Assembly (NCBI GenBank): GCA_034521595.1
Contig: JAXHMG010000002.1
Span: 128,001-192,000, forward strand
Source of the DNA: Gemmatimonadota bacterium
GTDB lineage: Bacteria > Gemmatimonadota > Gemmatimonadetes > Longimicrobiales > Gaopeijiaceae
DNA: 64,000 nt
Direction: 5' to 3'
The notes under the pieces were generated by a model. It did not search any database. It was given only the letters and a program-made list of their open reading frames with translations, and was not told the origin of the DNA. Made by a program: the position numbers and the translations under genes. Below, piece by piece: positions 21,234-25,007 of the stretch. Position 1 is the stretch's first letter; every line of letters starts with the position of its first letter.

Positions 21234-21381
21234 ATGTACTCTCCACGGAAGTTACGGTAGGGAGAGCGAACGTACTTCCCGACCCGAGGTGGCAACAGGA
21301 CGAGGCGGCCGGGCACGGGTGCCCGGAGCACCGGTCTTGGTATTTCCCGAACCGTTCGCCCAGGGGGCGAGGAGACCTTCC

Positions 21382-21967
21382 ATGGCATCGCTCTTCCGTC
21401 GTTCCACACGTCCGGCCTTGGTCGCGGTCTCGGGCCTCCTGATGCTCGGACCGGTGACCGCCCCCCTCACGGCCCAAGCGCACGACGCCCCCCGCCCCAT
21501 CGCCGGCACCAACACCGTGTGGCTCGAGGAGATGACTTGGATGGAGGTTCGCGACGCGCTCGCCGAGGGCAGCACGACGATCATCGTGGGAACGGGCGGG
21601 ATCGAGCAGAACGGTCCGTACGTGGCGAGCGGAAAGCACAACTTCGTCCTCACCGCCACGACCGAGGCCATCGCGCGGGAGCTCGGGAACGCCCTGGTCG
21701 CGCCGATCGTGAAGTTCGTGCCCGAAGGAGACGTTCGAGGCGCTGCTCACGGATATCGCCTCCAGCTTCGCCGCACACGGTTTCACCGACATCGTCCTCA
21801 TCGGCGACAGCGGCGGCAATCGCCGGCGGATGGACGCGGGCCTCTTCAGCATCAACGGCGTGGACCTGGCGCCCCTCTCGCGCACCATCGCCAACGGCCG
21901 GAGGCTGGTGCGGTACCGGGCCGAGCTAACCGCACGGGCCATCCGGGAGGCGATCGCGGGAGGGTGA
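21382..21967 (+). pseudogene. Creatininase-family gene, frameshifted with apparent internal deletions
   Basis: Frame 1: LEEMTWMEVRD, GGIEQNGP, GKHN, KFVPEG. After ~21729 another frame reads TFEALLTDIASSFAAHGFTDIVLIGDSGGN and ends at TGA 21965-21967. Confidence 0.8.
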
Positions 21968-21985
21968 CATTGGCTGTTAAAGCGG

Positions 21986-22014
21986 TTGATCGTGCGCCGG
22001 AACCCACATATGCT
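21986..22014 (+). promoter_or_regulatory. Sigma70-type promoter for the leader/ATP-grasp/LLM operon
   Basis: TTGATC (21986-21991), 17 nt spacer, TATGCT (22009-22014). Confidence 0.65.
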
Positions 22015-22036
22015 TAGTCGCTACGCACAAGCTTCA

Positions 22037-22162
22037 ATGATCCCCACCGCCACAGCCATGCGCCCCGAACTCCGTCCCCGAACTCCGACCGCGACCATGA
22101 CCTGTCGCTGTTGTTGTCCGGCTCTCCCGCCGGGAGAGGCCGAGGGGCGCCCGTACATGTGA
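22037..22162 (+). CDS. Putative Cys-sensing attenuator leader peptide (41 aa; in-frame alternative ATGs at 22058 and 22097)
   Basis: MIPTATAMRPELRPRTPTATMTCRCCCPALPPGEAEGRPYM*, with four TGT codons at 22103-22117; lies between the promoter and the terminator. Confidence 0.75.
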   Translation: MIPTATAMRPELRPRTPTATMTCRCCCPALPPGEAEGRPYM

Positions 22163-22213
22163 CGGACGCGTGAACGACCACCGGGCTCAGCCCGGATCCC
22201 CGGCCCCTCTCCC
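22122..22213 (+). promoter_or_regulatory. Attenuator switch: protector (1:2) versus antiterminator (2:3)
   Basis: GGGAGAG(G) 22132-22139 pairs with CTCTCCC 22122-22128 or CCTCTCCC 22206-22213; GAGGGGC 22142-22148 pairs with GCCCCTC 22203-22209. Confidence 0.7.
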
Positions 22214-22234
22214 CGCGAGAGGGGCCGTTTTTTT
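22201..22234 (+). terminator. Intrinsic terminator in the 5' leader (attenuator 3:4)
   Basis: Perfect 11-bp stem CGGCCCCTCTC/GAGAGGGGCCG, 5-nt loop, T7; 26 nt before the ATG at 22261. Confidence 0.92.
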
Positions 22235-22260
22235 GTCCCGTTCCACACCGACCGAGACCC

Positions 22261-23277
22261 ATGACTCGTTCCGATATCCCCGGTGCCGCCAGCGGCGCCA
22301 TCGCCATCTATCACGAGCACCCGGACTGGTTCCGGCCGCTGTTCGACGAGCTCGACGCCCGCGGCGTGCCCTACGTCCGACTCGATGCGGCCGACCACGT
22401 GTTCGACCCGGCGGCCGAGGATCCCGACTACGCACTCGTCTTCAACCGGATGAGCCCCTCGGCGTTCCTGCGCGGCCGGGCGTCGGCGGTCTTCTACACG
22501 TCGCAGTACCTCGCCGACCTCGAGCGGCGCGGCATCCGGGTCATCAACGGGTGGAAGGCCTGGCAGACCGAGATCTCCAAAGCCGCCCAATTGTCGCTCC
22601 TGGCCGAGCTCGGCCTCCCCGCGCCCCGAGCACGCGTCATTCACCGGGCGGAGCAAGCTCCGGCCGCGGCCGAAGGCCTTCGCTTTCCCGTGGTCGTGAA
22701 GCCGAACATCGGTGGAAGCGGCGCGGGCGTGCGGCGTTTCGACAGGCCGGAGACTCTCGCCACGGCGACGAACGAACTCGATCTCGGCATCGACTCCACC
22801 GCCCTCGTGCAGGAGTTCGTGCCGGCAGAATCGGGACGGATCGTGCGCGTGGAGGTGCTCGACGGGAAGTTCCTCTACGCGATCCGGGTCTACACCGACG
22901 GGTCGGACTTCAACCTCTGCCCGGCCGACGCCTGCCAGAGCGTGGACGGCGCCGAGCTGGAGCGCGCCGCCTGCGCGGTGGACGCCCCCAAGAACGGCAT
23001 GCGGGTGGAAGGCTACGAGCCTCCCTCCGATGTCGTGGAGGACGTGGAGCGGATCATGGCCGCGGCCGGCATCGAGATCGGGGGCGTCGAGTACATGATC
23101 GACGAGCGTGACGGCCGACGGTACTACTACGACGTGAACGCGCTCTCCAACTTCGTGGCCGACGCGCCCAACGTGGTGGGGCTCGACGCCTTCGCGCGGC
23201 TGGCCGACTGGCTCCAGCGGGAGGCCGGCCTGACCCCGGCCCACGCGGAAGCCGCGATCCAAGGAGGTGCGGCATGA
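22261..23277 (+). CDS. ATP-grasp (RimK-like) ligase
   Basis: FPVVVKPNIGGSGAGV, LVQEFVP, GGVEY, YDVNALSNF. Confidence 0.85.
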   Translation: MTRSDIPGAASGAIAIYHEHPDWFRPLFDELDARGVPYVRLDAADHVFDPAAEDPDYALVFNRMSPSAFLRGRASAVFYTSQYLADLERRGIRVINGWKAWQTEISKAAQLSLLAELGLPAPRARVIHRAEQAPAAAEGLRFPVVVKPNIGGSGAGVRRFDRPETLATATNELDLGIDSTALVQEFVPAESGRIVRVEVLDGKFLYAIRVYTDGSDFNLCPADACQSVDGAELERAACAVDAPKNGMRVEGYEPPSDVVEDVERIMAAAGIEIGGVEYMIDERDGRRYYYDVNALSNFVADAPNVVGLDAFARLADWLQREAGLTPAHAEAAIQGGAA

Positions 23278-24326
23278 GGTTCGGTTACTGGCTCCCCGTC
23301 TTCGGCGGCTGGCTTCGCAACGTCGAGGACGAAGGGATGGAAGCTTCGTGGGAATACGTCAGCCGCCTGGCCCGCCGCAGCGAGGAGATCGGCTTCGATC
23401 TGTCGCTCGTCGCCGAGCTCAACCTGAACGACATCAAGGGCATGGACGCGCCTTCGCTCGACGCTTGGAGCACCGCCGCCGCCCTCGCCGCCGTCACCGA
23501 GAAGCTCGAGCTCATGGTGGCGGTACGCCCGACCTTTCACGCTCCGGCGCTCCTGGCGAAACAAGCGGCGAACATCGACCGGATCAGCGGAGGCCGCCTC
23601 TCGCTCAACGTCGTGTCGTCGTGGTGGGCGACCGAGGCGAAGAAGTATGGCGTGCAGTTCGACGAGCACGACGACCGCTACGCCCGCACGGCGGAGTGGC
23701 TCGAGATCGTCGACGGGATGTGGAAGCAGCCGGAGTTCTCGTTCAAGGGACGGTACTACGAGGTCGAGGACGCGATCCTCGAGCCGAAGCCCGTGCGCCG
23801 GCCGCGGCCTACCGTGTACGCAGGCGGCGAGTCAGCCGCCGCCAAGGAGCTGATCTCGACCAAGTGCGACGCGTGGCTGACCCACGGTGACCCACCCGAC
23901 GTCATCCGCCCCAAGGTCGACGACATGCGGGAACGACGGGCGCGGACCGGTCTCGAACCCATGTCGTTCGGTGCCGCCGGCTACGCCGTGGTCCGGCCCA
24001 CGGAGCGCGAGGTCCGGCAGGAGCTCGAGCGCATCACGAACGTGCGCGAGAACGCACGCGGCTATGCGAATTACCAGGACTGGATCAACAACACCGAGCT
24101 CGAGCGGCAGGTGAGCATCGAGGACTACTCGGTCTCCAACCGGGGGCTCCGCAGCGGGCTCACGGGAACGCCCGAGCAAGTGGCCGAGCGGATCTTGGAG
24201 TTCGAGCGGGCGGGCCTGGACCTACTGCTGCTCCAGTTCTCCCCACAGCTCGAGGAGATGGAGCGGTTCGCCGAGGAGGTCATTCCGCTCGTGCGGGAGG
24301 AGTCGGAGGCGAGTCGGGTGGCGTAG
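23274..24326 (+). CDS. LLM-class flavin-dependent monooxygenase (SsuD/SfnG-like, organosulfur)
   Basis: MRFGYWLPVFGGW, ELMVAVRP, IDRISGGRLSLNVVS, YAGGES, GLTGTPEQVAERI; ATGA overlap. Confidence 0.88.
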   Translation: MRFGYWLPVFGGWLRNVEDEGMEASWEYVSRLARRSEEIGFDLSLVAELNLNDIKGMDAPSLDAWSTAAALAAVTEKLELMVAVRPTFHAPALLAKQAANIDRISGGRLSLNVVSSWWATEAKKYGVQFDEHDDRYARTAEWLEIVDGMWKQPEFSFKGRYYEVEDAILEPKPVRRPRPTVYAGGESAAAKELISTKCDAWLTHGDPPDVIRPKVDDMRERRARTGLEPMSFGAAGYAVVRPTEREVRQELERITNVRENARGYANYQDWINNTELERQVSIEDYSVSNRGLRSGLTGTPEQVAERILEFERAGLDLLLLQFSPQLEEMERFAEEVIPLVREESEASRVA

Positions 24327-24329
24327 CTG

Positions 24330-25007
24330 CTAGGATCCGTCCGAAGTCGAATCGGTCACGCTGGACCGGATCTGGTCCGCCCCCGTCACCATGCGATGGA
24401 AGTTCCCCTCCCAGGACTGCCAGGCGAGCACCAACGCGGCGACCACCAGCATCACGGAGGCTCCCTTCATCATGCGCTGCTGCCATGCGCGTGTGAGCCG
24501 CCGGTGCCCGTACGCCGCGAGCCCGGCGACGACCGACCGGACAGCGAGCAACTGGAGGATGAACGCACCCGCGAACGCACCGCCGAGCTCCCAGGAGACG
24601 CGCCAGAAACCCACGAACAGGGGCGCGCCCACCAACATCCAGAAGACCCAAGGAGTCGGTGAGACGAGCGCCAGCAATGCGGCTTCCAGGCTCCGGCGTG
24701 ACGCCTCGTCGGGGACGTGCGCCACCGGATCTTCCTGGGCCCGCTTCCAGGTGCCGCGGGCGAGATAGAGGATCAGGACGCCTCCGACGATCCCCATCCA
24801 CCGGAGCAAGCCGTCCGGAAGCTGCGCGACCACCAGAGCCGCGGTCGTCAGCACCACCAGCTCCGAAAGAAGCGGCACGACCGCCACCCGAAATCCCGCC
24901 CGGAAGCCGGATTTCAGGGAGGTCGCCGCCACGAGCGCGGAGAAGGGGCCGGGAATCGCGCCGGCGACGAGTCCCAGCACGAATCCCAGGAAAAGAGGTT
25001 CCGACAC
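24330..25007 (-). CDS. LysE/RhtB family translocator
   Basis: GLVAGAIPGP, GFRAG, LVSPTPWVFW; hydrophobic; start uncertain because it abuts the MITE. Confidence 0.82.
   Translation of the reverse strand: MSEPLFLGFVLGLVAGAIPGPFSALVAATSLKSGFRAGFRVAVVPLLSELVVLTTAALVVAQLPDGLLRWMGIVGGVLILYLARGTWKRAQEDPVAHVPDEASRRSLEAALLALVSPTPWVFWMLVGAPLFVGFWRVSWELGGAFAGAFILQLLAVRSVVAGLAAYGHRRLTRAWQQRMMKGASVMLVVAALVLAWQSWEGNFHRMVTGADQIRSSVTDSTSDGS

Follow-up and report, generated by a model that had tools for sequence, protein, structure and literature searches.

We found that the leader of a two-gene operon in a Gemmatimonadota bacterium, encoding a RimK-like ATP-grasp ligase and a luciferase-like FMNH2-dependent monooxygenase (LLM), is best read as a classical ribosome-mediated transcription attenuator whose sensor would be a run of Cys codons interspersed with Met codons; we put the probability of this reading at roughly 0.85. 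The leader lies in a 64,000-nt stretch of contig JAXHMG010000002.1 (the window), and coordinates below are positions in that window, on the plus strand unless stated. An attenuator of the trp/his type had been proposed here from the letters of the window alone (the original prediction), and that reading is now supported by conservation of the upstream open reading frame (uORF) and terminator, covariation of the hairpin between segments 1 and 2 (the 1:2 hairpin) and of the terminator, folding, and a set of related leaders elsewhere. The elements that the prediction had named (a 41-codon uORF with a C-R-C-C-C run and four Met codons, two pairing segments, an adjoining GAGGGGC, a small hairpin, and an 11-bp terminator followed by seven T) were all recovered, as follows:

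21986-21991 and 22009-22014, plus strand: promoter-like pair TTGATC and TATGCT with a 17-nt spacer, 8 of 12 consensus matches
22037-22162, plus strand: uORF, 41 codons with stop TGA at 22160-22162, encoding MIPTATAMRPELRPRTPTATMTCRCCCPALPPGEAEGRPYM
22097-22117, plus strand: sensor codons ATG ACC TGT CGC TGT TGT TGT (M T C R C C C), read from the sequence
22119-22128, plus strand: segment 1 (CTCTCCC at 22122-22128), 5' strand of the 1:2 hairpin
22132-22142, plus strand: segment 2 (GGGAGAGG at 22132-22139), able to pair with segment 1 or with the terminator 5' arm
22119-22142, plus strand: 1:2 anti-antiterminator hairpin, −15.5 kcal/mol
22132-22148, plus strand: predicted antiterminator strand, in which 22132-22142 pairs with 22201-22213
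22147-22169, plus strand: hairpin around the uORF stop codon, −9.3 kcal/mol
22181-22195, plus strand: spacer hairpin CCGGGC-TCA-GCCCGG, −10.3 kcal/mol
22201-22234, plus strand: intrinsic terminator, stem-loop 22201-22227 and T7 at 22228-22234, perfect 11-bp stem (9 G-C) with a 5-nt loop, −23.4 kcal/mol

The run TGT CGC TGT TGT TGT (C-R-C-C-C) occupies 22103-22117 of the uORF, which has no Pfam match, and segment 1 starts 2 nt beyond the last Cys codon. The terminator 5' arm contains CCTCTCCC (22206-22213), and in an alternative antiterminator register GAGGGGC (22142-22148) pairs with 22203-22209. The leader as a whole folds more stably than its shuffles (z = −3.17).

In the mechanism we propose, transcription would begin 5' of the uORF, and a ribosome would translate the uORF shortly behind RNA polymerase. 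Where Cys-tRNA (and Met-tRNA) is plentiful, this ribosome would pass 22103-22117 and reach the stop codon at 22160; behind it segment 1 would pair with segment 2, the terminator hairpin (22201-22227) with its T7 tract would then form, and transcription would stop short of the ATP-grasp gene. Under a shortage of charged tRNA-Cys, the ribosome would stall on the Cys codons with its footprint over segment 1, and the free segment 2 would pair with the terminator 5' arm (22201-22213) once that arm emerges, the small hairpins at 22147-22169 and 22181-22195 shortening the distance between the two partners. The terminator would then be blocked and the ATP-grasp and LLM genes transcribed. The uORF stop codon lies about 18 nt past segment 2, and therefore the 1:2 hairpin, rather than a terminating ribosome, would have to sequester segment 2. 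We infer that the uORF is translated, that the ribosome stalls, that the RNA folds in the kinetic order given, and that the leader responds to Cys or Met. The alternative structures themselves were recovered by folding: when the transcript was folded to 22216, the minimum free energy (MFE) structure was the antiterminator (22132-22142 with 22201-22213), with or without a mask for the ribosome, and when it was folded to 22234, the MFE structure was the 1:2 hairpin plus the terminator. The antiterminator is thermodynamically competitive, and the folding check set out with the original prediction came out in its favor.

We surveyed the 450 nt upstream of ATP-grasp orthologues at 97 loci, made up of the window's own locus and 16 related genomes (L001-L017) and 80 named contigs. 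Leaders were flagged automatically where at least three Cys in seven codons stood in an open frame ending before the gene, upstream of a hairpin with a T tract and a free energy of −9 kcal/mol or lower. A Cys-dense uORF with a terminator was flagged at 48 of the 97 loci, a count that includes the window itself (L001), a duplicate of L005 (L031), a wrong frame (L012), and a dubious 9-codon frame (L054); the true leader of L012 has M-C-M and was recovered by a covariance model. Among L001-L017, 15 of the 17 were flagged, the own locus and the wrong-frame L012 being counted among them; the leader of L002 is masked by N, and L014 has a C-R-C-R-R-C uORF and a hairpin without a T tract. The genes 5' of the leader vary between loci, and the leader therefore travels with the operon downstream of it. 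A search further upstream flagged 6 of 47 loci (one of them dubious), and the other five (L052, L059, L060, L063, and L078, all labelled Gemmatimonadales) have a Cys leader with a terminator about 600 nt upstream, in the order Cys leader, FMN reductase, ATP-grasp, LLM. Leader-bearing loci are labelled Gemmatimonadota, Acidobacteriota (Terriglobia, Vicinamibacterales, 'Angelobacter'), Methylomirabilota, Eisenbacteria, Limnocylindrales, and Bacteroidota; these are the labels of metagenome-assembled genome (MAG) records and may be imperfect.

Three of the 48 flagged loci, labelled Bacteroidota and belonging to Pontibacter and Rufibacter records (L064, L076, and L101), look different. Their uORFs stop right after the Cys run (ending ...HCCFC, ...YCCCCCC, and ...NRCCC) and lie 150-250 nt before the ATP-grasp/LLM pair, with only weak hairpins after them. 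The wiring may differ in these loci.

The codons of the run carry the second line of evidence. Cys/Met runs stand at the equivalent place in orthologous leaders, TGT and TGC are freely interchanged within the conserved Cys runs, and the frame stays open beyond the last Cys codon for another 33-78 nt in all 42 non-Bacteroidota leaders. The synonymous TGT/TGC variation together with the open frames points to selection at the level of codons. Outside the run, the peptides vary between clades (...MMCRCCRPALPRGEAVGRPYM, ...NMAMCCCMCMCTRERPVLSNFS, and ...TSTYCCCCCC). Close relatives retain a tail motif, P-x-L-P-x-G-E-A-x-G-R, which overlaps RNA segments 1 and 2 and in which the substitutions fall at loop positions.

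Met codons also appear to belong to the sensor. In 38 distinct runs, the 207 codons from first to last Cys comprise 144 Cys, 28 Met, and 35 others, and Met thus accounts for 28 of 63 codons other than Cys within these runs versus 1.8% of codons in genes. Met is interleaved with the Cys codons and enriched over the gene background, and it is therefore probably part of the sensor, which probably reads both amino acids. The Cys-only sensing proposed originally thus stands for its conserved Cys run and needs widening to Met.

The choice of Cys codon in the window is also distinctive, as had been noted from the preference of nearby genes for TGC. Across 1163 long ORFs of the same genome with high third-position GC (GC3), TGT accounts for 1086 of 4360 Cys codons (24.9%), and the four of four TGT codons in the window's leader are unusual (0.25^4 = 0.004). 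In 24 high-GC leaders, 45 of 85 Cys codons are TGT, a fraction to be read with a 24.9% baseline that comes from the window's own genome only and with related leaders that are not independent. Cys-dense windows numbered 169 in the six frames of the 3.49-Mb genome (about 0.006 expected per 240-nt leader); counted genome-wide with no terminator filter, they are mostly alternative frames of genes and too noisy to use.

To the codon evidence we add that of base pairing. A covariance model (R1) was built from four close leaders and rebuilt from 15 leaders as R2, and pairs were counted over alignments A7 (15 rows) and A9 (51 rows); the MAFFT leader alignments A2, A3, and A8 misaligned terminators or segment 2 and were kept out of the pair counts. 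For the terminated fold, 93.7% of cells were paired in A7 versus 78.6% in shuffles, with 23 of 28 pairs changing on both sides and none of 500 shuffles reaching the observed value; in A9, the figures were 91.7% versus 70.2%, with 26 of 28 pairs changing on both sides. In A9, an alignment fitted to the model, all seven core pairs of the 1:2 hairpin changed on both sides (89.5% of cells paired), as did 10 of the 11 terminator pairs (98.3% of cells paired). The hairpin around the stop codon (22147-22169) had 6 of 7 pairs changing on both sides in A7 (89.7% of cells paired), and by eye the spacer hairpin has a counterpart at the equivalent place in close relatives. We conclude from these alignments that the 1:2 hairpin and the terminator covary strongly.

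The antiterminator was also tested without an alignment. In 38 of 42 leaders, the last Cys codon is followed at a distance of 5-25 nt by the start of the best partner of the terminator 5' arm, compared with 10.6 expected under uniform placement. Leaders paired with their own terminator arm at −15.06 kcal/mol versus −12.51 ± 0.38 kcal/mol with foreign arms, a value as low as which occurred in none of 20000 permutations; permuting arms within groups gave p of about 0.01 in three groups, and the groups with GCCGCTC and CCGGAAGG arms clearly favored their own arm type. Set against dinucleotide shuffles, leader-arm pairing reached p ≤ 0.05 in 19 of 45 leaders and beat 99% of shuffles in 9 of 45. 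These alignment-free tests favor the antiterminator.

A number of results weigh against the attenuator reading, and we gather them here. About half of the orthologous loci have no Cys leader by the automatic criteria. A consensus promoter scan lists no promoter-like site in front of the uORF (the pair matches at 8 of 12 positions, the threshold being 9 of 12); the hexamers and spacer of the predicted promoter are present, and its status as a promoter is not borne out by the scan. The uORF has three candidate starts (22037, 22058, and 22097), as had been pointed out; L003, L004, and L007 retain ATGs corresponding to 22058 and 22097, and the 22037 ATG is not conserved, the closest relatives L003 and L004 being without an equivalent. 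As also anticipated, no Shine-Dalgarno sequence for the uORF was seen when the window sequence was read. Alignments A7 and A9 were fitted to the terminated fold, their related rows are not independent, and about 10 rows of A9 are partial or spurious. Column-wise covariation of the antiterminator did not exceed controls over the two registers tested, whose columns are conserved and rich in G and C/T: in A7, 79.3% of cells were paired versus 79.1% in shuffles (a level reached by 285 of 500), and a further comparison on A7 gave 71.9% versus 70.5% (141 of 500 as high), while in A9 both values were 72.8% (273 of 500 as high). Of the stems whose covariation the original prediction proposed to check together with conservation of Cys uORFs, the 1:2 hairpin and terminator therefore covary and the antiterminator does not rise above controls. 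The window's own arm type, CCTCTC, shows no preference (−13.9 kcal/mol with its own type versus −13.6 and −14.0 with two others), and its duplex gains modestly over shuffles (−17.5 versus −13.4 ± 2.2, p = 0.03). Finally, in the fold to 22216, the antiterminator wins even without a stalled ribosome or with a ribosome on the stop codon. Since it wins at equilibrium without stalling, the decision must be kinetic, the local 1:2 hairpin presumably being the first to form where segment 1 is not covered by a stalled ribosome. The translation start and the antiterminator, with no column-wise covariation above controls, are the weakest links.

Some further observations bear on the start of the leader. 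TTGAT(C/T) is retained in the three closest loci (L002, L003, and L004). The first ATG lies about 16-23 nt past the −10-like hexamer in the window, and an ATG lies 6-10 nt past the −10-like box in L008-L010 and in a second poly-Cys leader of the same genome.

The lack of column-wise covariation would also fit an arrangement in which the uORF senses Cys by stalling and the output is not a 2:3 antiterminator but translational coupling, unmasking of a ribosome-binding site, Rho, or mRNA stability, the hairpin being a constitutive leaky terminator. The proven mycobacterial Cys small ORFs (sORFs) act on translation, according to the accessible part of the report (10.1101/834739). We nevertheless consider such an output improbable: a strong terminator (−23.4 kcal/mol with T7 in the window) stands between uORF and gene in nearly all flagged leaders, the partner of its arm is found at a fixed place just past the Cys run (38 of 42 leaders), the specificity for the own arm holds in permutations, and no Shine-Dalgarno sequence that could be masked was seen ahead of the ATP-grasp start at 22261 when the window sequence was read.

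We found the attenuator architecture at further loci as well. A search of 40 related genomes with R2 returned 50 matches (E ≤ 0.01); of loci not beside the ATP-grasp gene, 22 were inspected, 10 downstream proteins were scored against NCBIfam, and four of the 22 loci gave no clear reading. Cys/Met leaders precede an O-acetylhomoserine sulfhydrylase at five loci, four of them in one genus (the two scored reached 651 and 658 bits with TIGR01326, cutoff 495), a MetN-like ABC ATPase at one locus (291 bits, under the cutoff of 499.7), SusC/RagA outer-membrane proteins at two loci, and a sodium:dicarboxylate-symporter-family (SDF) transporter at four loci in relatives (one scored). The window's own genome has a second poly-Cys leader with its own terminator (C1:84160-84300, minus strand; MMHTRTNATASCCCCGAPPGASGG...), which was found both by R2 and by an independent scan for Cys runs with terminators. 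In this leader (L111:4161-4301, minus strand), a promoter-like pair TTGACG-17-TATAGC lies about 9 nt before GTGATGATG, and the gene after it encodes an SDF transporter (PF00375, 331.7 bits), for which a role in cystine uptake is our guess.

The same model also recovered leaders with other sensor codons. Leu-rich leaders precede 2-isopropylmalate synthase (leuA) at three loci (one scored), an Ile/Leu/Val-rich leader precedes acetolactate synthase (ilvB), a Thr/Ile leader precedes homoserine kinase (thrB), and a Phe/Tyr/Trp leader precedes DAHP synthase. Each of these leaders (L135, L136, L142, L141, L139, and L138), found with the Cys-leader model R2, has a terminator and a ...GGAGAGGCGG... / CCCTCTC module in common with the Cys leaders. 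In the window's own genome, a Val-rich leader (MSGLGLMRSELVVVEFIREGRG...) with a terminator (C3:129313-129446, plus strand; L114:1501-1634) precedes a gene for a class IV aminotransferase (PF01063, 140.7 bits) and looks like a branched-chain amino-acid attenuator. The shared switch module suggests a single attenuator chassis re-coded for different amino acids. With slightly better than even confidence, we lean toward a cross-phylum sulfur amino-acid ribulon, in which terminator-type Cys and Met attenuators would stand before genes for Cys/Met uptake and synthesis and before the FMN-reductase/ATP-grasp/LLM module, and in which one switch (CTCTCCC...GGGAGAGGCGG with a CCCTCTC terminator) would be common to these and to Leu, Ile/Val, Thr, and aromatic leaders in Gemmatimonadota-like genomes.

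The shift in sensor codons bears on the two other explanations of the leader. In one, the terminator is under a trans-acting factor (protein or small RNA) or a metabolite-binding RNA, and the Cys-rich frame is incidental. Protein regulators, CysB/Cbl or SfnR for example, usually control genes of the SsuD/SfnG type, and the leader's stability relative to shuffles would suit a structured RNA of this kind. Against it, a scan of 21800-22400 with Rfam 15 found no family at its gathering score (best E = 3.2, 17 bits versus a gathering score of 77), the run's amino acid shifts with the controlled pathway, and the codon-periodic TGY/ATG pattern, synonymous variation, and open frames are kept over several phylum labels, which a ligand-binding RNA would not need; we regard this explanation as very unlikely. 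Among 20 leader-negative orthologous loci, Rfam at gathering scores gave two tRNAs and no riboswitch. The least probable explanation, to which we give next to no weight, makes the uORF a Cys-rich precursor of a ribosomally synthesized peptide that carries post-translational modifications (RiPP), or a functional mini-protein, modified by the ATP-grasp and LLM enzymes, with the hairpin a partial terminator setting the precursor:enzyme ratio: graspetide-type loci do place a small peptide gene beside an ATP-grasp ligase with a terminator between them, the ATP-grasp/LLM pair is conserved, and the tail motif is retained in close relatives, but that tail is RNA segments 1 and 2 with its changes at loop positions, the Cys/Met run alone is common across clades whose tails are wholly unlike (Bacteroidota-labelled loci stopping right after the run), the model for graspetide maturases, TIGR04187, gives 30.1 bits (cutoff 350), similar leaders precede the SDF transporter, O-acetylhomoserine sulfhydrylase, MetN-like, and SusC/RagA genes with no ATP-grasp gene nearby, and Leu, Val, Thr, or aromatic runs precede the matching biosynthetic genes, a match of run to pathway that is the signature of leader-peptide attenuation and that effectively excludes a RiPP precursor linked to this ATP-grasp enzyme.

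Five further candidates in the window's own genome were rejected as leaders. C3:1257997 is a repeat, present in duplicate, that carries a terminator; C3:536350 and C3:2506697 fall within or right beside coding sequence; and the R2 matches C3:58867 and C3:2238158 are a gene-end terminator and a coding region, respectively. The repeat (C3:1257997-1258327, minus strand) is an element of about 100 nt with a 12-bp terminator hairpin that occurs twice in tandem, about 230 nt apart.

Ribosome-mediated attenuation is a textbook mechanism for Trp, His, Leu, Thr, Ile/Val, and Phe. The classical attenuators (trpL, hisL, leuL, thrL, ilvL, and pheL) serve enterobacterial amino-acid operons, and the thrL sensor mixes Thr with Ile, a parallel to the mix of Cys and Met here. 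The present leader differs from the enterobacterial attenuators in that the sensed amino acids would be Cys and Met, the targets encode not a biosynthetic pathway but an ATP-grasp ligase together with an SsuD/SfnG-like monooxygenase, and the host belongs to Gemmatimonadota. It resembles attenuators of the trpL/hisL type in having a uORF with a run of the sensed codon, predicted alternative 1:2, 2:3, and 3:4 hairpins, and an intrinsic terminator before the first gene, features described in textbooks and in the accessible part of a mycobacterial study (10.1101/834739).

Two bodies of work on Cys leaders are the closest precedents, and we cite both from the parts accessible to us. In mycobacteria, the Cys tract of polycysteine leaderless sORFs pairs with the Shine-Dalgarno sequence of the next gene and is unmasked on pausing, a translational mechanism with no terminator (Canestrari et al. 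2020, 10.1101/834739). The authors state there that, to their knowledge, uORF attenuation for cysteine had not been described before (10.1101/834739). Like that 'Cys ribulon', in which charged tRNA-Cys is sensed by pausing, the leaders described here have consecutive Cys codons in an unannotated sORF and occur at several independent loci in one genome as a Cys-related regulon. They differ from what the accessible part describes in having a terminator and a predicted antiterminator, interleaved Met codons, and no Shine-Dalgarno sequence that we could see; the mycobacterial sORFs are leaderless, and the first ATG of the window stands downstream of its −10-like hexamer at the distance given above. 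In our folds of the window, the Cys tract is also unpaired with the gene start, unlike in the mycobacterial sORFs. The second precedent is the prediction of Cys leader peptides before cys/cbs operons in Actinobacteria, for which no conserved terminator hairpins were found and Rho was suggested (Seliverstov et al. 2005, PMC1262725). The two sets share short ORFs with Cys runs (near the stop in Actinobacteria) before genes that are cysteine genes in Actinobacteria, and differ in that the terminator here is strong and conserved, as far as the accessible part of that paper allows the comparison.

As to phyla, leader peptides were noted only in Proteobacteria, Actinobacteria, and some Firmicutes in the accessible part of an earlier survey (Naville and Gautheret, PMC2965389). 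A literature search joining Gemmatimonadota with leader-peptide attenuation returned no paper, and no terminator-type Cys or Met leader was found in the literature searched, with few subscription journals covered in either case. The novelty claimed for this leader thus holds for the intrinsic-terminator form, the targets, and the taxa, and not for Cys leaders as such, which the accessible parts of two reports (PMC1262725, 10.1101/834739) already put in print for Actinobacteria. What is new here is a Cys/Met sensor with an intrinsic terminator, new targets, and new phyla; the class of mechanism is already known. If true, a conserved terminator-type Cys/Met leader would extend classical attenuation to the sulfur amino acids and to phyla without described leader peptides. 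It would also give the ATP-grasp/LLM pair a regulatory label (induced by sulfur amino-acid shortage), by which the biochemistry of the pair becomes directly testable, and the shared switch with varied sensor codons would offer a natural system for attenuator re-coding.

The controlled operon consists of the two genes that the original prediction had assigned to it, with matches to the expected families:

22261-23277, plus strand: RimK-like ATP-grasp ligase (PF08443, 32.4 bits)
23274-24326, plus strand: luciferase-like FMNH2-dependent monooxygenase of the SsuD/SfnG/MsuD group (PF00296, 213.8 bits)

All NCBIfam equivalog matches of the ATP-grasp protein fall far under cutoff. Orthologues with 60-78% identity occur at loci that carry the labels of many phyla, the nearest named ones being labelled Gemmatimonadetes or Longimicrobiales MAGs; an Atlas look-up returned generic RimK/ATP-grasp names, and PDB sequence matches were weak (E about 1e-6). 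The LLM scores 260 bits with the SfnG model TIGR04021 (cutoff 382.95) and 187.8 bits with the SsuD model TIGR03565 (cutoff 518.2), both below cutoff, and is a member of a related subfamily only, not an SfnG or SsuD equivalog. Its nearest PDB chains are 3rao (444.5 bits) and 8vw6, an 'alkanesulfonate monooxygenase' (357 bits), followed by SfnG, MsuD, and SsuD.

At 83 of 96 loci, the LLM gene comes after the ATP-grasp gene, and a literature search on the ATP-grasp/LLM pair found nothing relevant. In five relatives, the first operon gene encodes an NADPH-dependent FMN reductase (PF03358; the family was scored in two of the five). The presence of an FMN reductase in some operons supports a two-component flavin monooxygenase system, and the operon is most likely a sulfur-scavenging route built on such a two-component monooxygenase. 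It resembles the SsuE/SsuD, MsuE/MsuD, and SfnG systems in that the enzymes closest to the LLM are alkanesulfonate and dimethylsulfone monooxygenases and in this association with FMN reductase; unlike the SsuD, MsuD, and SfnG systems, it pairs an LLM that falls below the SfnG and SsuD cutoffs with an ATP-grasp ligase, which those systems lack. Control here would be by a leader peptide, in contrast to the CysB/Cbl/SfnR-type proteins of the SsuD/SfnG systems.

On its 3' side, the LLM gene ends with its stop codon at 24326, and 3 nt separate it from a convergent gene for a LysE-family translocator (24330-25007, minus strand, PF01810); our scan reported no terminator-like site at this junction. 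On the 5' side of the leader lies a creatininase-family gene (21301-21967, plus strand) that is split over two frames near 21728. One frame matches positions 1-64 of PF02633 and the other positions 82-117, and the rest of the domain is lacking; the split reflects either disruption of the gene or a mistake in the assembly.

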